This document shows positions 7,992 to 59,494 of a stretch of 64,000 nt of DNA, in pieces. Numbering within the stretch: position 1 is the stretch's first letter; each line of letters opens with the position of its first letter. The translations under genes were made by a program, and so were the position numbers. The notes under the pieces were generated by a model. That model was not told where the DNA came from. It was given only the letters and a program-made list of their open reading frames with translations, and made no database searches. Source of the DNA: Candidatus Altimarinota bacterium (GTDB lineage Bacteria > Patescibacteriota > Gracilibacteria > CAIRYL01 > GCA-016699755); contig OY760935.1 of assembly GCA_963664295.1 (NCBI GenBank), positions 672,001-736,000 of the forward strand, in the 5' to 3' direction.

Positions 7992-9077
7992 ATGATTGAA
8001 AATTTCGAAACCCTATTTAAGTGGTCTCAAACAGATTTTCTTTCCCCTAAAAAAATTGACGACCTGAGAAACTTTTTTGGTAATCTTGAAATTGCCTGGG
8101 AAAAAGGCGATGAAAAATCATTCAAAAAAGCAGGAATAAATCCAAATAGCGTAGATGGGTTTTTTCAGCGCAAAACAAAATTAAATATTGAAAAACTTTG
8201 GCAAAAATACCAAAAAATCGGTGCAAAAATGATGTTTATTGAGGACGAAAATTACCCTCAACAATTAAAAGAAATAGACGCACCACCTATTTTTTTGTTT
8301 TATAAAGGTGAAATAAAAGAACAAGATAATTTTGCCTTTGCTGTGGTTGGGTCACGGGTTTATTCTGCCTATGGCAAAGAAGCCACACTAAAAATAGTGC
8401 CTGATATTGCCAAAGCTGGTTTCACTATTGTTTCCGGGCTTGCCAGAGGAATAGACACACTAGCACATAAAGAAGCTTTGCGTATGGAGGGTCGCACACT
8501 GGCCATTTTAGGCTCAGGAATAGATAATATCTGGCCTAGTGAAAATCGTAGCTTGGCTGAAAAAATTATTGATGGACAAGGTGCGGTTATTTCTGAATTT
8601 CCTCTTGGTACTGCGCCAATTGGCTATAACTTTCCTCGCAGAAACAGAATTATTTCCGGTCTTTCCAAGGGAGTTTTAGTAATCGAGGGCAAGAAAAAAT
8701 CCGGCTCACTCATCACAGCACATATTGCGCTTAATCAAGGCCGAGAGGTTTTTTCTCTGCCAGGCAATGGCTTTTCTGCCCTTTCCGAAGGCCCAAACAC
8801 GCTAATTAAAAAAGGTGAAGCAAAACTAGTCACTTGCGTAGAAGATATTTTGGAAGAATTTAATCTTGATTTAAAAACTGAAAAAAAAGATTTACGCGTA
8901 CCAAAAAATGAAAAAGAAAAATCTCTTTTAGATATTCTGGGTGATAATCCAAAAATGTTTGATGAAATTGTAGCAGAAAGCGAGCTTGGCTCTGCAGAGA
9001 TTTCTTCCTTGCTTACTATTTTAGAAATAAAAGGCTATGCCCAAAATTTAGGCATGGGGCAATGGGTGAGAATATAA
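7992..9077 (+). CDS. dprA: DNA-processing protein DprA
   Basis: AVVGSR, IVSGLARGID, FPRRNRIISGLS, SGSLITA; C-terminal winged helix. Confidence 0.96.
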   Translation: MIENFETLFKWSQTDFLSPKKIDDLRNFFGNLEIAWEKGDEKSFKKAGINPNSVDGFFQRKTKLNIEKLWQKYQKIGAKMMFIEDENYPQQLKEIDAPPIFLFYKGEIKEQDNFAFAVVGSRVYSAYGKEATLKIVPDIAKAGFTIVSGLARGIDTLAHKEALRMEGRTLAILGSGIDNIWPSENRSLAEKIIDGQGAVISEFPLGTAPIGYNFPRRNRIISGLSKGVLVIEGKKKSGSLITAHIALNQGREVFSLPGNGFSALSEGPNTLIKKGEAKLVTCVEDILEEFNLDLKTEKKDLRVPKNEKEKSLLDILGDNPKMFDEIVAESELGSAEISSLLTILEIKGYAQNLGMGQWVRI

Positions 9078-42958: not shown

Positions 42959-43040
42959 CATAAACTAACCTATTATTAAAAAAAGGAGGGGGTTATTACT
43001 ACAAATAATGACAAAAAAATCTCCTTAAGCACGACCTTTT

Positions 43041-43637
43041 CGTCATTCTGAGCGGAAAACACCACCTTGCTGTCATTCTGAGCGGAATGAAATGGAGCGA
43101 AGAATCTCCTTGTCCATGTGCTCAAGTCCTATCTTGTCATTGCGGACTTTTTGGGCTCTTTTTGGATTGTCATTGCGGACTTGATCCGCAATCTCGGAAG
43201 GTGTCATTGTGGATTTTTTGGGGTGTCATTCTGAGCGCAAACACACCCTTGCTGTCATTCTGAGTGAAATGAAATGGAGCGAAGAATCTCCTTGTCCATT
43301 CGTGCAAGTCCTGCCTTAGGTAATTCAACAGTAATGACAACAGGAGATCCTTCGCTTCGCCTAAAGGCTCGCTCAGGATGACAGAGTAAGAGGGATTAGG
43401 ATGACAGAAAAAGTAAGAGAGAGGGAGAATGACAGAAAAAAGGAGAGGTCAAGATAACAGAGTAAAGGGGATCAAGACAACGAAGAAAAGGAGGCAAGAT
43501 GACAAAAAAGCACTTAAGACAAAAAAAATAACCTATTTCGTCATCCGCCTAAGCAAATCCCTTGCAATAACAAAAAAATAAAAACAATTAAAAAAAATTC
43601 ATTGCCCCAGATAAAGCCAAATAATCAACATTAAAAA
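43041..43637. repeat. GTCATT-tagged REP/REPIN-like composite element (locus 3)
   Basis: Two left REPs (TGTCATTCTGAG...AGCGAAGAATCTCC), one right REP (GGAGATCCTTCGCTTCGCCTAAAGGCTCGCTCAGGATGACA), tail shared with locus 2. Confidence 0.9.
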
Positions 43638-46551: not shown

Positions 46552-48231
46552 TTAAATATTTGATTTTTTAATATCTTTTTTAGCCTCAAAATCAAGCGCC
46601 ATAAAATTAATCTCCAAAGGATAAGCGCTTTCCTCTGTAAATTTTATTTTTGCTTTTAGATAATTTCTTAATGCAATTCGGCTATGTGCAAAACTTTCTT
46701 TTAAGCCATCTGAATCCGCCACAGAGTCAGCATCCGCATTCCAAGTAAAACTTAATTTGTTTTCAATGAATTTATTTTTTTTATCCCAAATATCAAACTT
46801 AAGATTAAACGAACTACTGGAATGTAAACGACCTTTTGCGTAAAAATTTTTACTTTTTTTAATAGTTAATGGTTGGTCAAAATCAATTTCTCCGCTTTCA
46901 TAAGCGCAGGCAATATTTGTACCATTGTCATTAAGACCATCAAAAAGACAATAAACCTTTGAATTAAGAGCAGAACTACCATAAGTATAAGCATCATAAT
47001 TTATAAATCTTTCAATATTCCAACCTGTAATTTCACTCCAAGCATCATTTTCTACATCATAAGCAAGAACAAGATTATTAGTGCTACTATCACGAGCGCA
47101 AGTAATTAAAATCTTGCCAACACCGCTAGCATAAATTAGGTCAGAATTAGAAAAATCAATATCAGAAAAATAATCTCTACCCAAAGCAAAAGAAAGGCCT
47201 CTACTACTTGCTGATGTTTGCTGAAAAACACCAAATTTATTAACATAAAAAATTCCTTTAGAAGTTGAAGCAATTCCGCCTTTATTGCCAAAATTTCCAT
47301 CTTGAAAATTTACATTTGGAACTTCCGCAGTACTAGTCACCATATTAACAACTTTCAAATTAAAACCGGCTTTTCCCTGATCATAAACAGCAACTATTTG
47401 ATTACCAATTGCACCAATTTCCTTTAATTCACCAAAAGAATTATTCTGAAAACTTCCAGGACCACCATAATAAGAAAGATAATAAGTTGGATACCAGGAA
47501 CAAAAAGGCACACTTGAACCAGAATATTTATTGCTCCAAAGTAATTCTGTTTTATTACTACTAGTGTTGCCAGCAAATAATCTATCATCATGAATAAATA
47601 AGATTTTTGCCCTAGGAGAACCTGCGATCTCCGCAATTTGATAGCGTAAATCACCATCAACAGTGGCGCTTCCTCCTTCAGAGTCGGTAATAATCTCGCC
47701 GTCTTGAAATTCACCGCTAATGTTCATCAAAGTTAAAGTTCCGCTAGTCGTAGGTGTACCTGCTATATTTTGCAATAAAACAGCAGTTGCCCCACTTGTT
47801 GCACCTGTTAAAATTTTATTCCCTGTAAATTCGGTTGTTTTGTTTTTATAATCAAGAACTTTTTTGACAACATGAATTCTGTCCTCACCATTACAAATAT
47901 ACAAAAAATCACCATAAACAGCAGAAGAAAATGGCTCACTTGAACTAAAATCACTTTTAATAAGCTCAAAAGAGCTGTCACTGGGATTATAAAACGCCAA
48001 AGTTGTTCCATAAGTTAAAGCAATTTTATTGTCATATTCTTTGAGCATAGTGATTTTTTCACTCACTCCACTAAGCTCAAAAAATTCAGTAATTCCCTTT
48101 CTCTTGCGCAAAATACCATTGCCTTCATAAAATAAATTTTCCAACCTAGTACAATGGTCTTTGTTTATTAAGCTTGGTAAATCTTTTTTGTTTAAGCCTT
48201 TTTTTGTGCCATAAAAAATTTTTTTCTCCAT
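46552..48231 (-). CDS. Putative podoviral nozzle / DNA-stabilisation protein (P22 gp10 / T7 gp12-like beta-propeller)
   Basis: N-terminal GLN...LEN....G.LRKRKG, beta-repeat composition, LAYDVENDAWS; directly follows the adaptor-like gene. Confidence 0.6.
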   Translation of the reverse strand: MEKKIFYGTKKGLNKKDLPSLINKDHCTRLENLFYEGNGILRKRKGITEFFELSGVSEKITMLKEYDNKIALTYGTTLAFYNPSDSSFELIKSDFSSSEPFSSAVYGDFLYICNGEDRIHVVKKVLDYKNKTTEFTGNKILTGATSGATAVLLQNIAGTPTTSGTLTLMNISGEFQDGEIITDSEGGSATVDGDLRYQIAEIAGSPRAKILFIHDDRLFAGNTSSNKTELLWSNKYSGSSVPFCSWYPTYYLSYYGGPGSFQNNSFGELKEIGAIGNQIVAVYDQGKAGFNLKVVNMVTSTAEVPNVNFQDGNFGNKGGIASTSKGIFYVNKFGVFQQTSASSRGLSFALGRDYFSDIDFSNSDLIYASGVGKILITCARDSSTNNLVLAYDVENDAWSEITGWNIERFINYDAYTYGSSALNSKVYCLFDGLNDNGTNIACAYESGEIDFDQPLTIKKSKNFYAKGRLHSSSSFNLKFDIWDKKNKFIENKLSFTWNADADSVADSDGLKESFAHSRIALRNYLKAKIKFTEESAYPLEINFMALDFEAKKDIKKSNI

Positions 48232-48236
48232 AAAAA

Positions 48237-48833
48237 TCAGTAAAAATCACCACAAGAAACATGAATTAGGGGAATATTTCTGTTATAAGTGGAAAATAAA
48301 TTTTCTAATATTTTTTTTAATCTATTTTGAGAATTTTCTTCGTCTTCAAGCTCCTCATCATCAATTGCAAAAAATTGATCTAAAGCTTGTTCATAAAAAA
48401 TTTTAAACTCATAATCACCAGTTAATGTGTCTGTATCTGCATCTAGCTCAGCTATATTTGGTATATATCTAAGCAAAAAGCTACCATTTAAATTGCCAGT
48501 AAAATGAACTTTATCGCCAGCCAAATAAAAACCTGGAGCACTTGCTCCATATTCAGTGGTGAAAAATTTTGAAACAGGATCACCAGCAGAATTAACAGAA
48601 AAAAAACCACAATTCAGACTGTTAATATGAGCAAAATCACTTGGTAAATCATATTCAACAGTACCACCCGAAACAGAATATGATTGAGTTTTAATAAATT
48701 TTTCCGGCTCAATTCTTACAAGCTGTTCATAAAGCCATTTTTCTGCATAATTAAGCCATTTATAAAATTTTTCATCTGTAATATTTTCGCCTTTATAGTC
48801 CTCAAAGGCATTTCTAAGCTCTAAAACATTCAT
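48237..48833 (-). CDS. Putative phage head-tail adaptor (tail tubular A / gp4-like)
   Basis: M...EL...D..F..WLN.A, G..EYDLPSDF, LRYIP...L..D.D motifs typical of adaptors. Confidence 0.65.
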   Translation of the reverse strand: MNVLELRNAFEDYKGENITDEKFYKWLNYAEKWLYEQLVRIEPEKFIKTQSYSVSGGTVEYDLPSDFAHINSLNCGFFSVNSAGDPVSKFFTTEYGASAPGFYLAGDKVHFTGNLNGSFLLRYIPNIAELDADTDTLTGDYEFKIFYEQALDQFFAIDDEELEDEENSQNRLKKILENLFSTYNRNIPLIHVSCGDFY

Positions 48834-48840
48834 AAAAAAA

Positions 48841-48870
48841 CAAAAAAAGATCAGTTCATCTAATCTTTTT
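48841..48870 (-). terminator. Leader terminator directly before the adaptor gene
   Basis: Minus strand AAAAAGATTAG-ATGAA-CTGATCTTTTT then TTGTTTTTTT-ATG. Confidence 0.55.
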
Positions 48871-48913
48871 ATTCATTTTAATATTCTCTGCGTTTTTTTA
48901 TGTTTATATTGTT

Positions 48914-48942
48914 ATTTTATCAAATCTAGATAAAAATCACAA
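48914..48942 (-). promoter_or_regulatory. sigma70 promoter of the adaptor-nozzle module
   Basis: TTGTGA-17 nt-TAAAAT with extended -10 TG; sequence-similar to the 53837-53865 promoter. Confidence 0.6.
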
Positions 48943-48977
48943 ATTTTTTTTCGCACTTTTTTGGCGCAAAAATTTTT

Positions 48978-49703
48978 CTATTTAAATTTTTCTCTCAAAA
49001 TATCCGCTGTCTTATGAACCAAAGATTGAATTCTTTTTCCAATAGAATTTACAATTTTTTGCTGATTATTTTTTAATTTTTCTGCAAAATTCCAAACAAG
49101 TGATAAATTTTTGAGTGCATTTTGCAAATCGTTGTCTAAATTTTTATCCAAAAAATTTTCAATTCCGGCTTTTACTGCATTTCCAATTAGATCAGATTTG
49201 TTTTTTAAAACATCTAAATCGCTAACATTAGACAAAAATCCACATTCTATTAAAACAGCCAAAGGCGCAGTATCATGCACAATTCCCAATTTACCATAAC
49301 GACTTAATCTCTCGCTTTTTGCTCCCCTATTTTTTAAGCCGGTTTTTTGGCAAATTTCCTTCAAGATATTTTCCGCCAATTTTTTGGACTCCCCGGAATT
49401 GTGATAATAAAAAGCTTCTGCACCTTTGGCCAAACTGCCAGCAGAATTACAATGAATACTAACAAGCAAAGAATTTGTGCAATCCAAACCAAAAGAATTT
49501 ATTTTTTTAATTTTTTCCGCCAAGGTTAAATCTTCATCAACGCCAATATAAACAACATTTTCTCCAAAAATAGAGCGGGTAATTTGTAAATTTAATTCCC
49601 TTTCTGTTGTGCCATCTTTGGCAATTGCACCAGGGTCATTTTTTTTAAAAAAATTTCCACTTTTTCCATGACCTGCCACAATAAAAATTTTTTCAGTTTT
49701 CAT
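48978..49703 (-). CDS. N-acetylmuramoyl-L-alanine amidase (Amidase_3), endolysin-like
   Basis: AGHG..DPGA..E, SIHCNS, LIECGFLSN; ATG at 49703 overlaps the upstream TGA. Confidence 0.9.
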   Translation of the reverse strand: MKTEKIFIVAGHGKSGNFFKKNDPGAIAKDGTTERELNLQITRSIFGENVVYIGVDEDLTLAEKIKKINSFGLDCTNSLLVSIHCNSAGSLAKGAEAFYYHNSGESKKLAENILKEICQKTGLKNRGAKSERLSRYGKLGIVHDTAPLAVLIECGFLSNVSDLDVLKNKSDLIGNAVKAGIENFLDKNLDNDLQNALKNLSLVWNFAEKLKNNQQKIVNSIGKRIQSLVHKTADILREKFK

Positions 49704-49942
49704 GCTCCAAAAACAAAAGTAATAAAAGTCCAAACAACACCAATCAAAGAGCCGGAAATCGCAACACCACCAACAATAAAAGCTTTCCAAAGTTCAAGTT
49801 TTTTTACTCTTTGGTTCATTTTTTCCATACTCTTTGCCATTTCCCGATGTACCTGATTATTTTCATCAAATTTGCTGTTTATATGTTGTTTTAAGCCATC
49901 AATTCGTTCTGCAATTTGTCCTAAATTTAACTTTTTCGCCAT
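49700..49942 (-). CDS. Small coiled-coil + C-terminal TM protein, holin/XhlA-like
   Basis: 80 aa; coiled coil ending RVKKLE then FIVGGVAISGSLIGVVWTF; coupled to the amidase. Confidence 0.55.
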   Translation of the reverse strand: MAKKLNLGQIAERIDGLKQHINSKFDENNQVHREMAKSMEKMNQRVKKLELWKAFIVGGVAISGSLIGVVWTFITFVFGA

Positions 49943-50511
49943 TTTGTAGATGATAAATTTCCAATAAAATTAAGATCGTCTCTTTCTGATTCACTTGCCG
50001 GAGTTGTTTCTGAGGCAATAAGCCCATCAAAAACAAAAGCTCCACAGCGTTCGTGAATTTCCCGGCTTAATTCCGAGCAATAATATTTATTTTTATCATG
50101 CGCCACAACAAAGCTCTGTTTTTGCAAAAATTTTAATTTCGCACAAACAACAGCTCTCCAAATAAGTCCCACAAAATCATACAAAAAACCTTTTTTAACA
50201 TATTGCAAAGCAGTTTTGCGCACATTACGAAGTCGCCAAACAGAACGAAAAACATCATGCGATCCAGAGCGCCTGCGCACATCACGCAAAGAAACAATGC
50301 GCACACCAGAGCAATAATCATCTTTGAAAAAAAACTTACGCACAGAAAAATCACTCTCAAGACATTTTCCTCTGCCAATATACAAAATTGCATGGGAATA
50401 AGGGGAGTTTGTGCCCCAGCGAATTAAGCGAGAAAGTAAACTTTTTCCGTCTCGATATAAAAACAAATCACCAACCCGCAAATTCCGCACCAAAGTTTTA
50501 TTATTCTCCAT
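49927..50511 (-). CDS. Permuted papain-like NlpC/P60 amidase (YiiX/YebB family)
   Basis: GDLFL..LSRLIRWGT.S.YSHA (His first), Y.YD, YYCSEL (Cys later). Confidence 0.85.
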   Translation of the reverse strand: MENNKTLVRNLRVGDLFLYRDGKSLLSRLIRWGTNSPYSHAILYIGRGKCLESDFSVRKFFFKDDYCSGVRIVSLRDVRRRSGSHDVFRSVWRLRNVRKTALQYVKKGFLYDFVGLIWRAVVCAKLKFLQKQSFVVAHDKNKYYCSELSREIHERCGAFVFDGLIASETTPASESERDDLNFIGNLSSTKWRKS

Positions 50512-50854
50512 TTTGAATTACAAAAGAGTTTTTTAAAATAAACTCATTAAGACCATTGGCATCTTGTTCAACAAAACCACCAACAGAAGAAACAAGCTCA
50601 ACAATTTCTTCATATTCTTTGCTGGTAATAATAATTTCTCCATTTATTTCTCTTTCTATCTTTAAGTCGTCAATAATTTGTTCTGCTCTTTTGTGACAAA
50701 AAATAAGCCAATTTTCACCATTTTTTTCTGCCAATAATGGCTCACCCAAAACCACAGAAAAATCATATCTTTTTTGATTGTGCATAAAGCCAGCATTTTC
50801 CATTATTCGCAAATCAGCTTCTTTGTTCGCAGGAACAGCAATAAATACATTCAT
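50501..50854 (-). CDS. Hypothetical protein in the virion cluster
   Basis: 117-aa frame overlapping the next gene. Confidence 0.65.
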   Translation of the reverse strand: MNVFIAVPANKEADLRIMENAGFMHNQKRYDFSVVLGEPLLAEKNGENWLIFCHKRAEQIIDDLKIEREINGEIIITSKEYEEIVELVSSVGGFVEQDANGLNEFILKNSFVIQNGE

Positions 50855-50913
50855 AAAAAATAAGAAAAATTAAAAATTTTCATCTTCATTAATTTCCCAA
50901 TAAAACAAGGCAT

Positions 50914-51636
50914 TTAAGATAAATAGCTACCAGAACTCAAAGCATTATAAAAATTAGCAACACGCAAAGCAGAAAAATATTCAGGATCAATGCGAAAATA
51001 ACGACATTCTCCTTGCAAGTAATAATTTGAACTAGAATCTTTGCCAATAGCAAAAGCATTAGTGGAACTAGTGTCATAAGCAACACCTGTCTGACTATCA
51101 CTACCAAATTCAGCGCCATTGATATAAATTTTGACACCAGAAGAAACGCTACCGGTGATAGTAAGAACAAAAGGAGTGTCAGCAGAAATATAATCAGAAA
51201 CAGAAGAAATAGTAATTAACTTAACAGCGCCATCAAGAGAATATTGGAATTTAATCTCATCAGTAGAAGCATAATAATTACAGCGTGGATAAGCACTATA
51301 GCCAAAAAGAGCATAGAAAAAATTATGATTTACAGAAAGGCTATCAAGAGAATAAATACCCGTAATGCAAAAATTACTCAATGTTCCCCAAGGTACACTT
51401 TCGCCAGTTGGTTTTTTTAAATAATCATCGCCAGCAAAAGAATAGCCAATAGTAGCAACAGTGGTATCATTTGTGTCAGCCTCAGATGTAGAGCCATTTT
51501 GTATGGTGATATTATTTTTACTTCTATCCTGCCAAACTTGCTCATTATTACCAACTTTGCCATCTAAAAAAACAATAGAATTATCTTTTCTTAAACTACT
51601 ACTAATGCCTATGTTTAATGTTTTTGCAATATCCAT
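50914..51636 (-). CDS. LamG/ConA-like jellyroll protein, candidate head-spike fibre
   Basis: WQDRSKN, YSFAGDDY, VKIYINGAE, FAIG...Y.L.G...FRI, LRVANFY; follows the spike-base gene. Confidence 0.7.
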   Translation of the reverse strand: MDIAKTLNIGISSSLRKDNSIVFLDGKVGNNEQVWQDRSKNNITIQNGSTSEADTNDTTVATIGYSFAGDDYLKKPTGESVPWGTLSNFCITGIYSLDSLSVNHNFFYALFGYSAYPRCNYYASTDEIKFQYSLDGAVKLITISSVSDYISADTPFVLTITGSVSSGVKIYINGAEFGSDSQTGVAYDTSSTNAFAIGKDSSSNYYLQGECRYFRIDPEYFSALRVANFYNALSSGSYLS

Positions 51637-51640
51637 AAAA

Positions 51641-51901
51641 TTAATAAATAGCAATAATGTGTTGAGCAGTAGTGTCAGTTGCTTTTACACGAGTTGTATT
51701 AACAGGCAAAAAAGAACCATCAGGCACATTCTTAAAAACAACAGCTGAACTTTCAGAATTTAAAACTGAAATATCTCCCCCACTACCAACATAAAGAGAA
51801 CGAGCAGAAATGCTCAAATCATTGTCATCATCAGGTGTCACAGAAGCAAATTGATAAGCTGGTGACACAGAAATTTTTTGATCAGTCACTGGATTAGACA
51901 T
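51641..51901 (-). CDS. Head spike base protein, Rcc01079 (RcGTA GhsA)-like family
   Basis: SPA..F..VTPDD..DL....RSLYVG.GGDI.V.......V.F.NVP.G..LPV...RV.AT.TTA..I.A.Y, 86 aa. Confidence 0.8.
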   Translation of the reverse strand: MSNPVTDQKISVSPAYQFASVTPDDDNDLSISARSLYVGSGGDISVLNSESSAVVFKNVPDGSFLPVNTTRVKATDTTAQHIIAIY

Positions 51902-51923
51902 AATTAAAATAAAAAATGAAAAA

Positions 51924-52070
51924 TTATTTTTTAGGGGGTCTGCCTCTTTTTTTAGGCATAAATTTCATTTTAATAATTTTTGCTTCATCATTTTTAATCA
52001 TTTTTTTTGCTTTCCAAGCGGGCACTGCAACAATGCGCCCAAAGCGATTTTTTATTTTTTGTGTTTGCAT
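51924..52070 (-). CDS. 48-aa basic protein with C-terminal AT-hook-like KKRGRPPKK
   Basis: Below the ORF-track cut-off; manual translation MQTQKIKNRFGRIVAVPAWKAKKMIKNDEAKIIKMKFMPKKRGRPPKK*. Confidence 0.6.
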   Translation of the reverse strand: MQTQKIKNRFGRIVAVPAWKAKKMIKNDEAKIIKMKFMPKKRGRPPKK

Positions 52071-52077
52071 AGTTTTA

Positions 52078-52111
52078 TTAAAAAATCATGACGGGCATAT
52101 AAAAATGCCCG
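52078..52111 (-). terminator. Hairpin/terminator after the major capsid gene
   Basis: CGGGCAT-6 nt-ATGCCCG stem (52092-52111), T-run shortly after on the minus strand. Confidence 0.55.
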
Positions 52112-52122
52112 CACAAAATTCT

Positions 52123-52989
52123 TTAAACAGAAATTTGAACATCAATAAGACGATTAGCACCTTCTGTAAAAGTTTTTACACCAAATTTAGCCTGAGATTT
52201 AAAAAGATAAACAAAATCATCTCTAAATTCAGGAGGAGTAATTTGCACTTTTGGTTTAATATTAGCCGCAAAACAAATAGGCTTACCACCACCAGCAAGA
52301 GCATGTTTAGTGCCAGTAGCAGTGACAAGATTGTTAGAACAATAAATTTTAATACCAGCAACAGTACCAACATAACCTCTAGTCACAACATTATCACCCA
52401 TTTGACCAGATCTTAAAACAGCTTCAGATTGCAATAAAAGAGCTTTTTCTACAGGTGAAATAATCAAAAATCTATCATCTTGCGGAACATTATTCACATC
52501 AAGAATTTGCCCAATACCAACAATAAATTTATAAATATTGTCTTTAGTAAGAACAGCCGGGTTAGTAGCAGTACCACCAACAAGCTCAGCATCAGCAGTA
52601 TGTTCAGCATTAGCATACTCAGCCATAATCGCATCATCATAAGCACTAGCAAAACTCTCAGCCGCATCAGCAATAAATTGATCCTTAGGACTAACTTTCA
52701 TGTATTTAACATCTTCTTCAGAAAGTTTCACAGCCCAAGCTTTACGAGTATCAAGAGAAAAAGTTTCATCAGCAACAGTAAGATCCTGCACAGTAGGAGA
52801 AGAATAAGAAGTCTCAAGATTACCAACAGAGATTTTATTAACACGAGGAAAATGCACAGTATCATTGCCATCAAAACTTCCTTCAAATTTTGTGTTAGCA
52901 ATATCCATACCAACAAACCTCTCACGAAGAACCTCCTGCAAAACCGAACTCCAAGCCTCAGCATTCAAACCCGCAACATTATTAGCCAT
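52123..52989 (-). CDS. Major capsid protein (HK97 fold, P22-coat/podovirus-like)
   Basis: E.WS..L...L, FEG.....DTVHFPR, A..A...D..I, LD..NVP.DDRFLIISP, G.VGTVAG.KIY.SNNL, FGVK; strongly T-ending codons. Confidence 0.85.
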   Translation of the reverse strand: MANNVAGLNAEAWSSVLQEVLRERFVGMDIANTKFEGSFDGNDTVHFPRVNKISVGNLETSYSSPTVQDLTVADETFSLDTRKAWAVKLSEEDVKYMKVSPKDQFIADAAESFASAYDDAIMAEYANAEHTADAELVGGTATNPAVLTKDNIYKFIVGIGQILDVNNVPQDDRFLIISPVEKALLLQSEAVLRSGQMGDNVVTRGYVGTVAGIKIYCSNNLVTATGTKHALAGGGKPICFAANIKPKVQITPPEFRDDFVYLFKSQAKFGVKTFTEGANRLIDVQISV

Positions 52990-53053
52990 AATAAAAATAG
53001 AAAAAATAAAACAAAAAAATATTCATATTCAAATTACTCAGTCAAAAACAAAC

Positions 53054-53686
53054 TCAAGCAAAACGCACTTCACCAAAACGATTTTCACATTCAGAAATAT
53101 ATTTTTTTCTTTGATAATCAGTGAACACATCAAAATCATCTGTATTGACCAAATAAAATTCATCAGCAGTATTCACATTTGACCTAGGGGGCATAGTTGC
53201 AACAGAACGCAATTCCTCCCTTTTTTTGTCCGCCTCATTGCGAATACCAAGAATAGCAATAGATTTAGCAAGAGCAGTCTCAAAAGGCACGCCATAATCA
53301 ATCAGCGTCGTCATCTCCTGAGAAAACTTCTCGCCATATCTTGCATCAAACTCAGTCTCCGAAAGCCCGCTTTTTTCACGAGCTACCTGCAAAGCAGACT
53401 GATAATTAAAATTTTCACTTTTTTGCTCCGATTTCTGATCTTCTACTTTTAAAATTGTGCCAATTTCTCTCTGTACCCACTCCGGCGCAGAAGAAATATC
53501 TTCATCATTTTGCGCTTTTTCAAGCCATTTATTAACAGTCGCCTCTCGCACAATTTTTCTATCCTCAAGTTTTTTTTCATTATTATCACAAGGTTCATCG
53601 CCAGCATCAACGGTGTCCTCAACTGACTCATCACAAGGTGGCAAAACCTGCTCATCTTCCATGGTGGTCAAATTTTCTTTTTCCAT
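53054..53686 (-). CDS. Putative capsid scaffolding protein
   Basis: Acidic disordered N-terminus, helical body, short C-terminal helix; immediately upstream of the capsid gene. Confidence 0.6.
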   Translation of the reverse strand: MEKENLTTMEDEQVLPPCDESVEDTVDAGDEPCDNNEKKLEDRKIVREATVNKWLEKAQNDEDISSAPEWVQREIGTILKVEDQKSEQKSENFNYQSALQVAREKSGLSETEFDARYGEKFSQEMTTLIDYGVPFETALAKSIAILGIRNEADKKREELRSVATMPPRSNVNTADEFYLVNTDDFDVFTDYQRKKYISECENRFGEVRFA

Positions 53687-53785
53687 AAAAATCGTGAAAA
53701 ATCTTAAAAATCAAATGGCAGTAAAATACTGCAAATTCTCATTTTAATTTTTTTCTACCGACTTAAATCAAATGAAACATAAAAA

Positions 53786-53813
53786 CAAAAAAGATTGGCA
53801 AAAATCCAATCTT
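53786..53813 (-). terminator. Leader terminator of the scaffold-capsid module
   Basis: Minus strand AAGATTGG-ATTTTTG-CCAATCTT-TTTTG. Confidence 0.65.
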
Positions 53814-53836
53814 CATTTTTATCATCATTTTATTTA

Positions 53837-53865
53837 ATTATATCAAATTCTACAGAAAAACACAA
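53837..53865 (-). promoter_or_regulatory. sigma70 promoter of the scaffold-capsid module
   Basis: TTGTGT-17 nt-TATAAT with extended -10 TG. Confidence 0.7.
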
Positions 53866-53877
53866 ATTTTTTTCATT

Positions 53878-54408
53878 TTACTTTTGCGCCAAAAATTTTT
53901 TCACCTTCACAAAAATAATCTTCAAAAGCTCAATTACTGCAGAAAAGACAAAAATCAAAAGTGTATAATAAAAACATGCAAGCGCAAAAAGCTGACCTTC
54001 ATAATCATAAGCTGGCTCAAAAGCATGGTACCCACTGCCATCAGGAAACACTATTCTTCCTGTAGGCGTATACTCAGCGCCATAAGAAAGAAAAATTTGA
54101 TCATGAAGATAGCCAAAAAACCAAGCAAAAATCAAAACAAAAACAAATGAAACCAAAAAAGAGTTAGTTATATTTTTTACTGGCTTATAAATGAAACTTA
54201 AAGTAAAAACTGGCAACCATGCGAGAAACATAATTACAAAAAAAGCCAAAGACATTGCAATAAAAAATAAAATATCGTCCTTCAGCGGAAGTGAACGATA
54301 CTTGATCGCCCCAATACACAAAACAATAAAAATAGGTGCATAAAACCCAAGCAAACTTCTCCATGCTTGATCTTTTTTACCAATATTGTTTTTAATTTTG
54401 TTAGTCAT
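53878..54408 (-). CDS. Four-TM membrane protein, candidate immunity protein 2
   Basis: Paralog of the upstream gene (WLPVFTLSFIYKPVKNITNSFLVSF; GAEYTPTGRI). Confidence 0.7.
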   Translation of the reverse strand: MTNKIKNNIGKKDQAWRSLLGFYAPIFIVLCIGAIKYRSLPLKDDILFFIAMSLAFFVIMFLAWLPVFTLSFIYKPVKNITNSFLVSFVFVLIFAWFFGYLHDQIFLSYGAEYTPTGRIVFPDGSGYHAFEPAYDYEGQLFALACFYYTLLIFVFSAVIELLKIIFVKVKKFLAQK

Positions 54409-54907
54409 AAAATTTTTTCTTTAAATAATTAAAAACACTACCTAGGCAAGAAAACACAAAAACCTGCAAAATAAACAAAATAAGAACAATAATAAAGCCG
54501 TCTCTATCAACTTCGGCAGATGGGCTATAAAAATAAAGATTATGCTCCATAGAAAAACCGATCCTGCCGGAAGGCGTAAAAACTGCCCCATGCCAAAGCC
54601 AAATTTTTTTATAAAGAAAAACACTTAAATAATAAAACAAAGAAATAAATGCAAAAGAAACAACAAAAGAATTAACAATGTTTCTGGCAGGTTTATAAAA
54701 AACACTTAAAATAAATATAGGAACCCAAACAAAAAGACAATAATAAGATAAAAAAAATAAAAATGACCAATAATTAACATCAAATCCTGCCCTAAATAAA
54801 TTGTCAAAATTTACAACCCAGGGCAATAGAGCAAAAGCAAGTGCTCCCCTAATTGATTTGAAGCTATCTCTAATAAAATTCTCAATTTTTTTAGTTTCGC
54901 TGGTCAT
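54401..54907 (-). CDS. Four-TM membrane protein, candidate immunity protein 1
   Basis: WVPIFILSVFYKPARNIVNSFVVSF; GAVFTPSGRI; start overlaps the toxin 3' end. Confidence 0.7.
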   Translation of the reverse strand: MTSETKKIENFIRDSFKSIRGALAFALLPWVVNFDNLFRAGFDVNYWSFLFFLSYYCLFVWVPIFILSVFYKPARNIVNSFVVSFAFISLFYYLSVFLYKKIWLWHGAVFTPSGRIGFSMEHNLYFYSPSAEVDRDGFIIVLILFILQVFVFSCLGSVFNYLKKKFYD

Positions 54908-55982
54908 AAAGTTGGTAACCAAAATCTAAATAATATGAATCACCAGGGTTATCTTTTCCTAAATTATCAATTGCTGCTGCATCTTTAATTTTATCGTAAT
55001 CAAGATCAAAATGATTAGCAGTATATCCAATAATCATATTACCTGGTGCATCATATCTTATCAAATCTCCATTAAATATATATGAATAATAATATCGTTC
55101 GATTTTATCACCACTGCCTGTTCCTGATTTTTGACCAAAAATTGGATGATAAGAATGAACATAATCATAGGGACCATTGCGACGAAATAGACCTAAAAAA
55201 TCGCCCAAGCTTAATAAGCTTGGTATGCCCGGTGTCGGCTTATCAAAAACTAATATTGAAAATACTTTATTAGGCGTATAAGGGCGCATAAATAATATCC
55301 TCAAGTCTCTAATTGCCTTTTCGCATTCCTCAAAAAACAAATCCTGAATATCAAAAGGGCAAACATCATTTAGTCCACAAAAAGTAAATCTGCCTACTAA
55401 ATCTTTAGGATCAATCGAATTGCTCTCATCAAAAAAGCTCACTCTGACAATTGTCTCCCATGTAGTTTGAATTCCAAGGACTTTATTGACAATATTAGTA
55501 ATGGCTTGTGAAGGATTATCCACCTCCAAAATCCCAGGTAAAATCTCACCAGTGTAAGGATTATAAAAATCAATCTTGCCTCCTTCTGGCTTAAAAAATT
55601 CCTCTTCACCTGCAGATAAATTCATTTGAACTTCTGCATTTGTGCTTGTATACAAGCCGTCCACAGTCATCTTGTCTCCATTATCATCCAAAACAAAAGT
55701 GCCATCAGGCATATAAATATTACCATTTTCATCAATAGACCTACCTGCATCTTGCAACATTTCAACAATATCCTCCTTTGTTTTTGCATCTTTTTTAATC
55801 TTTTCCTGTAAAACATCACAAGGAATACAAGCGGGAGAATAAATCCACATTTCAGTACCGTCATTGCAAGTGACGCCATCATCAGAAATTCCCCCATGAT
55901 AAGAACAGCAACCACGCATAGAACCTCCGGCAGAGGCTAGTTGTGTTTTTCTGTGAGATGTTAATTTAAGCTCTTCAGACAT
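54891..55982 (-). CDS. Putative polymorphic toxin: Cys/His-rich N-terminal motif + C-terminal Ntox44-like domain
   Basis: N-terminal RGCCSYHGG..CNDG; C-terminal NGPYDY..YIFNG....YDAPGNMIIGY....DNPGD...GY..Y matches the Ntox44 GNxxxG/DxxxD pattern. Confidence 0.65.
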   Translation of the reverse strand: MSEELKLTSHRKTQLASAGGSMRGCCSYHGGISDDGVTCNDGTEMWIYSPACIPCDVLQEKIKKDAKTKEDIVEMLQDAGRSIDENGNIYMPDGTFVLDDNGDKMTVDGLYTSTNAEVQMNLSAGEEEFFKPEGGKIDFYNPYTGEILPGILEVDNPSQAITNIVNKVLGIQTTWETIVRVSFFDESNSIDPKDLVGRFTFCGLNDVCPFDIQDLFFEECEKAIRDLRILFMRPYTPNKVFSILVFDKPTPGIPSLLSLGDFLGLFRRNGPYDYVHSYHPIFGQKSGTGSGDKIERYYYSYIFNGDLIRYDAPGNMIIGYTANHFDLDYDKIKDAAAIDNLGKDNPGDSYYLDFGYQLYDQRN

Positions 55983-56000
55983 AATAAAATCTAAAAATTT

Positions 56001-56327
56001 CTAAAACCTTGGAGATAAATTTTCAATTTCTTCGTCAAGCCCTCTTTCCAACTGATCTTCCTCAAACGCAGTGCGAAAAAAAGCAATCAACTCACCCATT
56101 CCTCGCTTAAATTCACGCAAATCTTTTTTAAAATTCTTCTGTGACTGTAAATAAACCAAAACCTCCATTAAATACAGCAAATCACTCTCATTTTCTTGCC
56201 AAAATTTTGCAAAAATCCTGCGTTTTAATTTACTTCCCAAAATAGACTCCGAATAGGTTTCTTCATTTTTATTTTTTGTAGCAAAAAGCCGTCTCAAAAA
56301 ACCAATTTTTTTTAACATATTCAACAA
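56001..56327 (-). CDS. Small helical hypothetical protein downstream of the portal gene
   Basis: 108-aa frame; position typical of portal-associated small genes. Confidence 0.6.
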   Translation of the reverse strand: MLNMLKKIGFLRRLFATKNKNEETYSESILGSKLKRRIFAKFWQENESDLLYLMEVLVYLQSQKNFKKDLREFKRGMGELIAFFRTAFEEDQLERGLDEEIENLSPRF

Positions 56328-56335
56328 ATAAAAAA

Positions 56336-57874
56336 TTATTTAATTTCCAAATCGCCTTCTTCTAAAGGCAAACCAAGAATTTGCGATCTTTTTATAATCG
56401 CTTTCTTATGCGCCAAAGAGCCTGTTGGCAAAACTTTAAGCATCTCATCAAGACGCGCCAACTCCGCAGTATAACTTGGATAAACACCACTACGAGAATC
56501 AATTTCAATACTAAATTCGTTTTCAGAAATTAACTTACTAACCATGCCCAAAGTCACTCCCTCTGCGACTAAAGTCTGGTCATCATGTGCTACAAAATCA
56601 CGAATTGAAGTCAAAACACACTCAATAGCAAAACGGATTTCCTCTGCATTTTGTTCCATAATCTGACGAACAAATGCATTAGAATTTTCCTCTCTCAAAA
56701 GAGCATGTCTAGCTGTGTCATTATTAGAAACTGATAAGTCATCAAGGTTAATACCAATTCTTTTTACAATTTGATCATATTTTTCAAACAAGCGCTCAAA
56801 CTCAGAAGTAAGCTGTTCGCCAATAATAGACTTAATTTTTCCATATTCTAATTGTCCGTTGTCATCAGCCTCAACAGGAATAATGCCCATTTCTCCGCGA
56901 CTTTTTGCCTCCAAAGCTTTATAAACCCAATTTTGAAACTCAGCAATTTTGCTCTTTTTCATAGTGATTGTATATAGCGGATCAACACGATTAGAAATTG
57001 CAGATATTGCCATATTCATCAACTTTCTTGCCTCAATATGCAGGTTATAAAGTAAATTTCCCAAACCAGCGTTATAAAAACCTTTCAAAGAAGAAAAACA
57101 AACAAAATGCAAAAGTGGCAAATAAGGATTACTATTTTTGTCCCAAAAAGGATAATTATCACCACAAGCCTTTTTTAAGCAAATAGCATTACTACCAGCC
57201 AAAACAAAATACTGTTTTTTACTTTTCGAAAAATAATGCACAAGCTCAACAAAGTCATCTTTATCATCAGAGCTTTCTCTGCCAGCAAATGGCACTCTGC
57301 CTAGTAAAACTTTTTTTGCTTCAGGAAAAAGCTGATGAAATTCATCAATTGAATAAAGATAAGAAAAAGCAATTTCATCAGCATCTAAACTTCCTCCCTC
57401 GGAACGAAGCTCACTGGCTTGCGGGTCAATCCAAACATCATTAATGGAGCAAGTTTCAAAACAAATTGGATTCCTAGCAGTGCCAGCGCCAATTTTGATA
57501 AAGGCATCACCAAAAAGAAGACCACGAAAAAAAGCACCTGATTTTTCAGTAAAAACCCTGGAAAAACCGCTCCTACTAAGCACAAAATCAAGACCTTTCC
57601 TTACTGCCTCATGCGAATTGCTATCAGCTAAATTACTCTTAAGACGAAAGTCCAATAGCTTCATTTTTGCCACAGTTTTCCAAAGAGCTTGAAAAAGCAA
57701 AAATCCATTTAATGTTTTTTTGGGACTTTTTTTCTCTGTTAAAAATTGATCTTGATATAAAACCTGTATTTTTGCACATTCTGCTGTTTTTTCATTTTTC
57801 TGAGCATTGGCTCTTTGCACAAGATTATCAACAAGCAAAAACTGCTTATTATCTGACAAATTTTCAATTTGCAT
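56336..57874 (-). CDS. Putative portal protein (P22/podovirus-like); start 57874 or 57913
   Basis: ~512 aa; LLFGDAFIK, VWIDPQA, NYPF...LP..H, GFY..GLG..L, M.I..I...V.P, G......TA; first gene of the head cluster. Confidence 0.75.
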   Translation of the reverse strand: MQIENLSDNKQFLLVDNLVQRANAQKNEKTAECAKIQVLYQDQFLTEKKSPKKTLNGFLLFQALWKTVAKMKLLDFRLKSNLADSNSHEAVRKGLDFVLSRSGFSRVFTEKSGAFFRGLLFGDAFIKIGAGTARNPICFETCSINDVWIDPQASELRSEGGSLDADEIAFSYLYSIDEFHQLFPEAKKVLLGRVPFAGRESSDDKDDFVELVHYFSKSKKQYFVLAGSNAICLKKACGDNYPFWDKNSNPYLPLLHFVCFSSLKGFYNAGLGNLLYNLHIEARKLMNMAISAISNRVDPLYTITMKKSKIAEFQNWVYKALEAKSRGEMGIIPVEADDNGQLEYGKIKSIIGEQLTSEFERLFEKYDQIVKRIGINLDDLSVSNNDTARHALLREENSNAFVRQIMEQNAEEIRFAIECVLTSIRDFVAHDDQTLVAEGVTLGMVSKLISENEFSIEIDSRSGVYPSYTAELARLDEMLKVLPTGSLAHKKAIIKRSQILGLPLEEGDLEIK

Positions 57875-57969
57875 AAAAATAGATAAAAATAAAAAACTTA
57901 TTTTTATGCTCATTTTTATAAATTTATATTTATCTATTTATTAAAACTAATTCACACAAATCTAATTAA

Positions 57970-58050: not shown

Positions 58051-59391
58051 TCACTCTCCAAGCTGTTTTATGTGATAATTTGTATAAAAAATAGTAATCA
58101 CAGTAGTCACCCAATCAATACAAAAAATACCCAACCAAATCGCTAAAATTGGAAAATCAAAAACCTTAACCAAAACATAATAAACAGGCAAAGGTAAAAC
58201 AATTTGACGCAAAAAACTAATATAAAAAGCATAAGCCGGTTTTTTAATTGCCTGCAAAGTAGCCATATTCAAAGCCAAAAAAACATAAGACCAAGCAGAA
58301 AGAGACAATATTTTTAAGGCAATTCCGCCAATTTCAATAACTTTTTGATCATCACTAAAAAAGCTCATCAAATTATATGAAGCAAAAAAGATAAAAAGCA
58401 CTGAAAACAGCATAATAATAGAACCATATTTTATAGCTGTTTTGCGCACTTCGTTCATTCTTTGATAATTTCCCGCACCATTATTCTGACCAACAATAGC
58501 CAAAACAGCTATATTAAGACCCATAATAGGCAAAAGAAAAATCTGTTCAGCACGAGTCATAATTCCATAAGCCGCCACTGCCTCTTCTCCGTAAAATTTT
58601 AAAAAATAAGTAATTACAAAAATACCAAGAGCAATAGTCATCATGTTTACACTAGAAGGAAAACCTTGCTTGATAATTTCCCAATAAGCTTCTTTTCGAG
58701 GGCGCAAGTCAGATAATTTTTTAATATGCAAAAACCCCATTCTATAGCTTGTAATAGTAATATAAATAGTATTGATCGCCATAATCAAAACAGTAGCCAA
58801 AGCAACTCCTGAAATCCCCAAAGCAGGCACGCCAAAACCACCATACAAAAACCAAGGATCAAAAATTAAATTAAGAAAAAAGCCTAAAACCAATAAATTA
58901 CGATAAACTTTAGTATTACCAGAGGCAATAAGAGTGCTGTTAATAGAATGAGTAGTAATAAAAAAGAAAGTACCAAGAAAAATAATATTTATATAAGAGA
59001 GAGCTAAATCAAAAGATGCTTGACTTGTTGCAAGTAATTTAAATAAATATGGTGCTAAAAAAAGCCCAAAAAACATTAAAAAAACAGCAAAAATCATTCC
59101 AAAAGAAACAACTTGCGTTGAAAAAAGTCTGGCTTTTTCTTTTTCTCCAGCGCCCAAAGCATTTGAAATCAATGCAGATCCACCAGTAGAAATACCATTC
59201 GCAAAAGACAAAATAATAAAAAACACTGGAAAACTAATAGACATAGCCGCCAGCGCCTCAGTGGACATTTGCCCCGCAAAATAAGTATCCACCACGTTAT
59301 ACATGGTCTGAAAAAAGAAACCAATACTCGCAGGCATTGCTATTTTGGCGATCAAAGATGAAATTTTTCCTTCTACAAGTTCTGCTTTCAA
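58051..59391 (-). CDS. MATE family efflux transporter
   Basis: IAMPA.....Q.MYNVVDT, NLIFDP, GISGVALAT, VGQNNGAGN; about 12 TM. Confidence 0.94.
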   Translation of the reverse strand: MKAELVEGKISSLIAKIAMPASIGFFFQTMYNVVDTYFAGQMSTEALAAMSISFPVFFIILSFANGISTGGSALISNALGAGEKEKARLFSTQVVSFGMIFAVFLMFFGLFLAPYLFKLLATSQASFDLALSYINIIFLGTFFFITTHSINSTLIASGNTKVYRNLLVLGFFLNLIFDPWFLYGGFGVPALGISGVALATVLIMAINTIYITITSYRMGFLHIKKLSDLRPRKEAYWEIIKQGFPSSVNMMTIALGIFVITYFLKFYGEEAVAAYGIMTRAEQIFLLPIMGLNIAVLAIVGQNNGAGNYQRMNEVRKTAIKYGSIIMLFSVLFIFFASYNLMSFFSDDQKVIEIGGIALKILSLSAWSYVFLALNMATLQAIKKPAYAFYISFLRQIVLPLPVYYVLVKVFDFPILAIWLGIFCIDWVTTVITIFYTNYHIKQLGE

Positions 59392-59494
59392 ATATATATA
59401 AAAAGAGCTGAATAATTATATCAAAACAAACAAAAAATAAAACCTTCAAAAACATAATTAAAATAGAAAACTTATAATTAAAAATTTTTCTAGG

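Follow-up and report, generated by a model that had tools for sequence, protein, structure and literature searches.

Why does a Gracilibacteria chromosome carry an unbroken run of tailed-phage particle genes with no integrase, terminase or repressor beside it? The question is raised by a 64,000-nucleotide stretch of a Candidatus Altimarinota bacterium (GCA_963664295.1, contig OY760935.1), here called the window, in which 16 minus-strand open reading frames (ORFs) at 46552-57913 encode head, neck, tail and lysis proteins. A sequence-only reading of the window had proposed a domesticated short-tailed particle that either packages DNA with a terminase encoded elsewhere, as a gene transfer agent (GTA), or forms a DNA-free capsid with protein cargo. 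The source genome, G000, is a single contig (C1) of 1,215,430 bp rated 100% complete and read with code 11; the window is G000:C1:672001-736000, and positions without a contig prefix are those of the window. We conclude that this set of particle genes, called the kit below, is probably maintained by its host. That its product is a short-tailed, GTA-like particle, domesticated by one Gracilibacteria clade, encoded at dispersed loci and packaging host DNA, is the reading to which the balance of the evidence inclines, though not by much.

The cluster is real, intact and correctly assembled. Its ORFs, estimated at about 15 by the sequence-only reading, are co-oriented and free of frameshifts and follow the order given there; the gaps to the neighbouring MATE gene and uppS, also correctly noted, are 138-177 bp and about 35 bp (the latter from the likely start). 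The GC content of the cluster resembles that of its flanks. A contig of 15,973 bp covers the cluster and both borders with 0 differences in sequencing runs X1 and X3 (X1, X3, X4 and X5 label the runs that gave contigs compared with G000), which speaks against a misassembled border; these two runs probably represent the source sample of G000 and are hence not independent. A strain 96-99% alike to G000 is present in a 2017 seawater study. None of the six sequencing runs listed bears the label of a virus fraction. For the independent seawater strain one contig joins uppS to the nozzle end of the cluster, and the MATE border is unbridged among the pieces listed. Codon use of the kit genes spans the 3rd to the 98th percentile of the genome and is uninformative. 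Promoter-like sites are not enriched relative to shuffled sequences (44 vs 50.2), and no convincing upstream motif is shared among the kit loci.

The absence of a terminase and a repressor, which the sequence-only reading had stressed, holds for the cluster locus but not for the genome. Beyond the window, at a distance of about 470 kb from the cluster, a module at G000:C1:1199821-1202472 contains the genes for a TerL of 433 amino acids (aa; G000:C1:1199821-1201122, minus strand; phrog_2, E 1e-27), its predicted partner TerS of 79 aa (G000:C1:1201115-1201354, minus strand) and, upstream of TerS, a DUF5659 protein (G000:C1:1201393-1201671, minus strand). A CI/LexA-like repressor with helix-turn-helix (HTH) and S24 domains is encoded divergently from these three (G000:C1:1201807-1202472, plus strand). 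The module lies between a pilin/ABC block and host genes. TerL was located through the gene that precedes the portal gene in related phage contigs; it matches T4 gp17 and another solved TerL, and it is the one phrog_2 terminase in G000. All invariant columns of a 17-row alignment are kept, including the positions that we take to be those of Walker A, Walker B, the coupling motif and the nuclease. The Pfam terminase models PF03237 and PF04466 returned weak false matches only in G000, the best being a UvrD-like helicase, and missed the true TerL.

A modelled complex of the two terminase proteins predicts an interface between TerS residues 63-78 and the N-terminus of TerL. The model scores 0.73, against 0.00 for the best of three controls, with at least 82% of contacts shared between runs and a partner pLDDT (predicted local distance difference test) of at least 63. 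The mark applied is reached by 116 of 157 solved complexes and by 2 of 215 mismatched pairs; the pass may be owed to likeness to solved terminases. The small terminases of G000 and G004 (79 and 84 aa) match no HTH family. TerS of the Rhodobacter capsulatus GTA (RcGTA) is described as having no N-terminal DNA-binding domain and as binding TerL with its C-terminus (PMC6854486). The predicted resemblance of the G000 protein to it is suggestive only. Since an intact packaging motor exists in the genome, the idea of a DNA-free capsid carrying protein cargo loses its main argument.

Several observations were made around this module. A second S24-domain gene follows the repressor (G000:C1:1202495-1202893), and its likely counterpart in G004 (contig C29, L297) lies beside homologues of the next two flanking genes of G000, with no terminase module there; this context gives a hint of the site at which the module was gained or lost. 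Directly upstream of radC (G000:C1:352816-353217, L196:12816-13217) is a gene for a 133-aa HTH protein paralogous to the repressor, about 50% identical over 73 aa; in G002 and G003, two genomes without the kit, relatives with the HTH part only come after a glmS-like gene. The switch may have a link to a family of host regulators and to competence or repair. The module also adjoins a type IV pilus-like block (PilB-like ATPase, PilC-like protein and pilin, by inspection) at G000:C1:1193965-1198992.

The kit is also kept in G004, a genome of the sister genus in the same family. Three blocks of G004, each inside a contig and flanked by host genes, hold the counterparts. Contig C44 carries the scaffold, capsid, C92 enzyme, holin-like, amidase, adaptor and nozzle genes and a 543-aa tail gene; C29 carries the portal gene and a 103-aa gene; and C45 carries the repressor, DUF5659, TerS and TerL genes, ordered as in G000 and placed between typA and a peroxiredoxin gene, with TerL 67% identical to that of G000. 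The kit therefore occupies two loci in G000 and three in G004, all of them host-flanked, and the accessory genes that are missing differ between the two.

In a host tree of four markers (951 columns), which comprises 13 of the 20 order genomes and leaves out G007 and six others, G000 and G004 are sisters at 100/100. A tree of SerRS only left the pair unresolved. A portal hidden Markov model (HMM) matches 2 of the 20 order genomes, G000 and G004. The capsid HMM matches 8 of 401 class genomes, namely G000, G004 and six more; of those six, four were inspected (G302 and G327 were left out): G320 holds a contiguous prophage, and the matches in G264, G339 and G169 lie on phage-like contigs or at contig ends. 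TerL is found in two of five family genomes by protein search and in none of five further genomes by HMM; its relatives elsewhere in the phylum (4 of 400 genomes) are only 28-37% identical. The closest named relatives of both the capsid and the terminase carry the label Candidatus Gracilibacteria.

The gene trees for capsid, portal and TerL (68, 23 and 31 rows, the latter two being subsets of the best matches) each place G000 and G004 in a clade apart from the phage relatives, with Shimodaira-Hasegawa-like approximate likelihood ratio test (SH-aLRT) values of 100, 100 and 99. These clades include a few proteins of unplaced context. The capsid and portal trees, the comparison of which with the host tree had been called for together with synteny, thus fit the sister position of the two hosts. 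The pairing of G000 with G004 in the host tree, and again in each of the three gene trees, is consistent with vertical inheritance of the kit, although two placed genomes are too few to show co-diversification. The simplest history would be a single capture that preceded the split of the two genera, with dispersal afterwards.

The coding sequences point in the same direction. Twelve kit genes shared by G000 and G004 are 40-72% identical (median 48%; 42 host genes, median 61%), and all twelve are full-length in both genera, which is hard to square with neutral decay over such divergence. Between living strains, a 728-bp stretch of the portal gene compared with the seawater strain has 21 synonymous and 9 non-synonymous differences (30 of 31 listed) over 148 and 578 sites, respectively. 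The corresponding ratio of non-synonymous to synonymous change per site (pN/pS) is about 0.11. The scaffold gene has 8 synonymous and 7 non-synonymous differences (15 of 15) over 90 and 354 sites, giving a pN/pS of about 0.22. The 108-aa gene after the portal has 8 synonymous differences, one of them in the stop codon, and 1 non-synonymous difference. About 35% of possible transitions are synonymous. Selection on the kit, as read from these codon differences, is purifying, and near-neutral change is not what the portal and scaffold genes display.

These results bear on the possibility that the kit is the remains of an old prophage, split by rearrangement, of no use to the host and in slow decay. 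The narrow spread (2 of 20 order genomes), the loss of different accessory genes in each genome and the greater divergence of kit genes than of the host median are what such decay would leave, and since the gene orders of the two hosts are heavily rearranged anyway, the dispersal could be passive. However, the twelve shared genes remain full-length despite saturated synonymous divergence, the portal gene is constrained between living strains, and what has been kept is a coherent set for packaging, head, neck, lysis and switch. As the sequence-only reading had noted for the cluster, no pseudogene debris and no att-like repeat at its borders were found, and no ORF in it is broken. Nor was a prophage integrase found in G000, where the one tyrosine recombinase is Xer-sized and no serine-recombinase motif was found. 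We regard a decaying prophage as distinctly improbable. The kit does not resemble a functional temperate prophage either: no integrase or attachment (att) sites were found, and the terminase is not beside the portal. No further kit locus was found in G000 by BLAST or with 167 related-phage cluster profiles, the whole proteome not having been scanned against PHROGs. Host maintenance of the kit fits these findings best, and two of the six features by which viriform GTAs are defined (PMC9662315) are present as judged from the genes alone: virion proteins of Caudoviricete origin (capsid, portal, adaptor, nozzle and TerL) and full endogenisation over several loci.

Intergenic repeat patches at 42960-43600 and 59300-59900 lie on either side of the wider cluster region. 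The reads show them to be multi-copy and polymorphic, with depth spikes and many joints, and the 15,973-bp contig stops at them at each end. They probably belong to a dispersed family of repeats like repetitive extragenic palindromic elements and are not att sites.

What particle would these genes build? All of them lie on the minus strand. The portal gene (56336..57913) encodes 512 aa from a likely ATG at 57874. Its match to P22_portal is weak for the single sequence (E 0.007), and 7 of 50 aligned homologues match the same model (best 2e-6); a homologue directly follows TerL in the related phage contig L013. The portals of G000 and G004 are 55% identical, and those of their clade measure 504-520 aa against a median of 581 aa in 47 chosen full-length relatives, so that the G000 protein falls about 70 aa short of the median for phage relatives. 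After the portal comes a 108-aa protein of a family without a name (56001..56327), conserved in G004, where the 103-aa version is 45% identical and also follows the portal, and in phages L219 and L227, where its homologues again follow portals. A scaffolding protein (53054..53686) is assigned by position and composition; its gene precedes the capsid gene in G000, in G004 (42% identity) and in related phages. The major capsid protein (52123..52989, 288 aa) has the HK97 fold, with matches to phrog_267 (E 7e-35) and, above the cut-off, PF25209; the family HMM matches solved capsids in the PDB, and the G004 protein is 72% identical.

The next genes encode a basic peptide of 48 aa (51924..52070), homologues of which follow the capsid gene in related phage contigs, and a spike base protein of the RCAP_Rcc01079 family (51641..51901; NF048002, 84 bits against a cut-off of 28, and phrog_12296) with relatives in phages L219 and L225. 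A LamG/concanavalin-like lectin domain protein (50914..51654; PF13385, E 4e-6, just below the cut-off) is likely the spike tip or receptor binder. It is followed by a 117-aa protein (50501..50854) with no family match in Pfam, PHROGs or NCBIfam, and by a permuted papain-like enzyme of the YaeF/C92 type (49927..50511; PF05708, E 0.001, under the Pfam cut-off, and NF008552, E 1e-4), 53% identical to the G004 version. A putative holin of 80 aa with a C-terminal hydrophobic segment (49700..49942; 60% identical in G004) and an N-acetylmuramoyl-L-alanine amidase (48978..49700; PF01520, E 1e-28, above the cut-off; phrog_435 endolysin) make up the lysis genes.

The neck and tail consist of a head-tail adaptor (48237..48833; PF24175 SU10_adaptor, above the cut-off) and a short-tail nozzle (46552..48231, 559 aa), a predicted beta-propeller of the P22 gp10 / T7 gp12 class. 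Folded with 30 homologues in AlphaFold 2, the nozzle reaches a pLDDT of 88.7, compared with 33 for the single-sequence model. The top Foldseek matches of the model are podovirus tail and nozzle chains: Pa223 (9nwi, E 5e-17), SU10, P22 gp10 (8eap) and T7 gp12 (6r21). Sequence-based PDB searches that started from the portal and nozzle alignments returned no useful match. Solved structures are matched by the capsid family HMM and by the nozzle model, and the portal is assigned through its homologues.

Related phages show how these genes are arranged in a virus. The TerL, portal, scaffold and capsid genes are contiguous there, with TerL directly before the portal, and contigs L013, L014 and L218-L229 carry homologues of TerL, portal, capsid, adaptor and nozzle arranged in the relative order of the kit, some of them with spike base, LamG and 108-aa genes. 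They differ in being contiguous and in having longer portals and large ejection-type genes. In 12 viral contigs with full-length nozzle homologues, the adaptor and nozzle genes are followed in 11 by a tail gene like the 543-aa gene of G004. The seven loci that reach beyond it continue with genes of about 805-917 aa and 543-1421 aa, the first of which (about 850 aa) has a CHAP or M23 cell-wall hydrolase domain in all four scanned; these large genes would encode ejection proteins. Phages with capsids 50-58% identical to that of the kit exist; isolated phages reach at most about 30% capsid identity among the matches listed, and the capsid query alone found no viral contig. Many capsid relatives (L015-L074 and the end of G339:C2) lie on contigs whose translation improves when TGA is taken to encode an amino acid; a rough rule based on coverage puts 43 loci in this group. 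Code 11 is used by the kit and by L013 and L014, its nearest phage relatives.

The sequence-only reading saw no long ejection proteins in the cluster, and profile searches with the families of related phages found none in G000. The parts that are missing are those that a related phage would supply, and it is conceivable that the kit depends on a helper, borrowing tail-tip and ejection proteins from a related podovirus or blocking its assembly, as a satellite- or defence-like element would. The existence of related phages fits this proposal, and the CI-like switch could sense infection. In contrast, the kit has its own lysis genes, and with no integrase, replication gene or att site found and two to three separate host loci it is no excisable satellite. 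Helper dependence appears very unlikely. The kit of the preferred GTA-like reading could plausibly build, fill, close and release heads, judging from its gene content.

A further gene in the cluster suggests another use of the particle. One gene after the portal lies a polymorphic toxin-like gene (54891..55982, minus strand, 363 aa) with a conserved N-terminus of about 110 aa and an exchangeable C-terminus. The toxin label given by the sequence-only reading is a lead only: Ntox44 (PF15607) has an Atlas score of 0.82 and was not detected by Pfam, the N-terminus has no usable Atlas match, and no MuF domain was matched in Pfam, PHROGs or NCBIfam. A contig of the seawater strain (run X4) matches the gene to codon 111 and then has 98 unlike bases, and in the G004 homologue the shared N-terminus is joined to yet another C-terminus, with a small membrane protein encoded next. 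Three different C-termini are thus found in G000, the X4 strain and G004. Downstream in G000 are two paralogous membrane protein genes, 54401..54922 and 53878..54408 (both minus strand), candidate immunity genes; in another strain the second has a 270-bp in-frame deletion (joint 54067-54338, one X5 contig). With a conserved N-terminus, an exchangeable C-terminus and downstream immunity candidates, the gene appears to behave as a polymorphic toxin.

MuF polymorphic toxins of temperate phages, whose genes adjoin portal genes, also combine a variable C-terminus with a position near the portal and subsequent candidate immunity genes (PMC5576092). The gene of G000 differs in having no detected MuF domain and in being separated from the portal by one gene. 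In G004 the homologue comes after greA and a tRNA-like gene, and no particle gene is near it. Of 301 class genomes, 3 match the N-terminal model: G000 and G004, from which it was built, and a third weakly. The interval from greA to the toxin-like gene (G004:C62 about 1690-1983, L304) contains the tRNA-like gene (by eye) and a promoter-like sequence, an arrangement that suggests a tRNA-linked toxin-immunity cassette. The gene may be an independent cassette that landed in the operon, and its status as particle cargo stays putative because it is elsewhere in G004.

It is against this background that a different function has to be weighed, in which the kit is domesticated for no gene transfer at all and filled particles serve as a weapon, decoy or toxin carrier, like PBSX. 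The position of the toxin-like gene close to that of MuF toxins, its rarity among class genomes, the absence of detected ejection-type genes and the lack of a post-nozzle tail gene in G000 agree with this use. However, the G004 toxin-like gene is unlinked to the particle and without a MuF match, and a TerL that is intact in all invariant columns and 67% identical across genera is not needed by a DNA-free shell. We consider such a weapon or carrier unlikely.

GTA-like packaging and transfer of DNA, a function read from the genes, has somewhat better than even prospects in our view and would proceed as follows. On DNA stress the S24-type repressor would cleave itself, which would free the DUF5659-TerS-TerL operon from repression. 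A prohead would be assembled from portal, scaffold and capsid, and the terminase would fill it with chromosomal DNA, since nothing can excise or amplify the scattered genes. The adaptor and nozzle would close the head, holin and amidase would release the particle, and the spike base and LamG protein would bind a surface glycan of the recipient. Because no ejection tube was found, the preferred route of delivery is that DNA freed at the surface would enter via the ComEC, DprA and pilus machinery of the recipient; surface binding with competence uptake is the weakest step of the mechanism. DprA is encoded in the window at 7992-9077 and is needed for RcGTA uptake (as cited in PMC11841831), and natural competence is reported for Saccharibacteria (PMC10187176). 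With about 470 kb between them, the two kit loci of G000 would not fit into one headful.

Several findings weigh against a particle that transfers host genes. The delivery genes come first: both large ejection-type families and the post-nozzle tail gene, the latter present in G004 as in the phages, were not found in G000 by profile searches, so the G000 particle is perhaps unable to deliver DNA. The first large family, the only one sought in G004, was not found there, and it was found in G339. ComEC is present in all five family genomes examined, irrespective of the kit. A short TerS is not decisive, because what lies upstream of related TerLs is highly variable: a noisy mechanical pick gave 47 distinct genes with a median of 104 aa. 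Synonymous sites between the genera are saturated in both the kit and host sets, so that this comparison cannot date selection; the strain differences rest on contigs of depth 4-5, and the LamG gene has 5 synonymous and 5 non-synonymous changes among the 10 of its 28 differences listed.

The spread of the kit is also narrow. It is carried only by two sister genomes, which for that reason are not independent, by one further strain and by a few context-free proteins. Gene order is shuffled throughout between the two hosts, and hence dispersal alone is no proof of taming. Prophages do enter the family: terminase-portal modules of ordinary prophages, with no relation to the kit TerL, are present in both G004 and G002. 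Methylase-TerS-TerL-portal modules of this kind, alike to each other, lie at G002:C1:215173-219477 and 462486-466778, and at least one is present in G004 (C46 and C52; L305, L308 and L309), with weaker pieces on C52 and some frames broken.

Among known systems, the kit would work most like FpGTA of Faecalibacterium prausnitzii, to which we liken it by description and not by protein homology. FpGTA is described as the first podovirus-like GTA-like element, encoded in two operons (PMC12946183). It too is split over separate operons without replication genes and has TerL, a short TerS without an obvious DNA-binding domain, portal, scaffold, capsid and lysis genes, and its delivery is likewise unproven (PMC12946183). 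FpGTA particles and about 9 kb of packaged DNA have been seen, whereas the Gracilibacteria kit is known from genes alone; moreover, the FpGTA terminase is in the head operon, in contrast to the separate G000 terminase with its own repressor, and the host belongs to another phylum (PMC12946183).

The spike base of the G000 cluster belongs to the RCAP_Rcc01079 family, which we take to be the head-spike base of RcGTA. RcGTA has a siphovirus-type tail and is under CtrA/GafA control, unlike the G000 kit with its P22/T7-class nozzle and CI/LexA-like switch. The kit further shares with RcGTA and the Rhodogtaviriformidae a multi-locus organisation that is vertically inherited there (PMC9662315) and may be so in the kit, and, by prediction, it shares with RcGTA a short TerS that binds TerL through its C-terminus (PMC6854486). 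We do not file it in any named GTA family: its nearest tree relatives are uncultured podovirus-like contigs, and RcGTA is absent from the trees. Prophages of Patescibacteria and phage RSA-ATP1 also bring tailed-phage head genes into Patescibacteria genomes, but they are contiguous over about 40 kb, some with predicted att sites (10.1101/2024.03.08.584096, PMC12455944). The term "gene transfer agent" has 0 occurrences in the main texts of these two reports, and no GTA in Patescibacteria is described in the literature searched, the coverage of which is incomplete and leaves supplements outside.

Beyond the cluster, ilvD-like and leuA/cimA-like genes are seen by inspection at 59913-63083. Amino-acid biosynthesis genes are unusual in Patescibacteria.

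Of the two alternatives offered by the sequence-only reading, the domesticated short-tailed particle with a terminase elsewhere is thus the one that stands, in its host-maintained form: the terminase exists, the kit is kept in a sister genus, and trees, synteny and selection fit, with gene transfer graded as above. A fuller and more tentative claim, which we put somewhat short of even, is that one marine Gracilibacteria clade independently tamed a podovirus into a GTA without ejection machinery, the first in Patescibacteria, with stand-alone repressor-gated packaging, DNA handed to the competence system of the recipient and a strain-specific polymorphic toxin maybe carried along. Such a kit is likely missed or called debris by prophage finders because its loci are split and its TerL escapes the Pfam terminase models. 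That about 14 kb of intact particle genes are kept across two genera in a 1.2-Mb genome implies a benefit to the host. Patescibacteria genomes are small and stripped, and conjugation, competence and transduction are named as routes by which they may exchange genes (PMC12455944). If the GTA-like reading is true, a host-encoded packaging particle would add a further route and would be the second podovirus-type GTA-like system after FpGTA.

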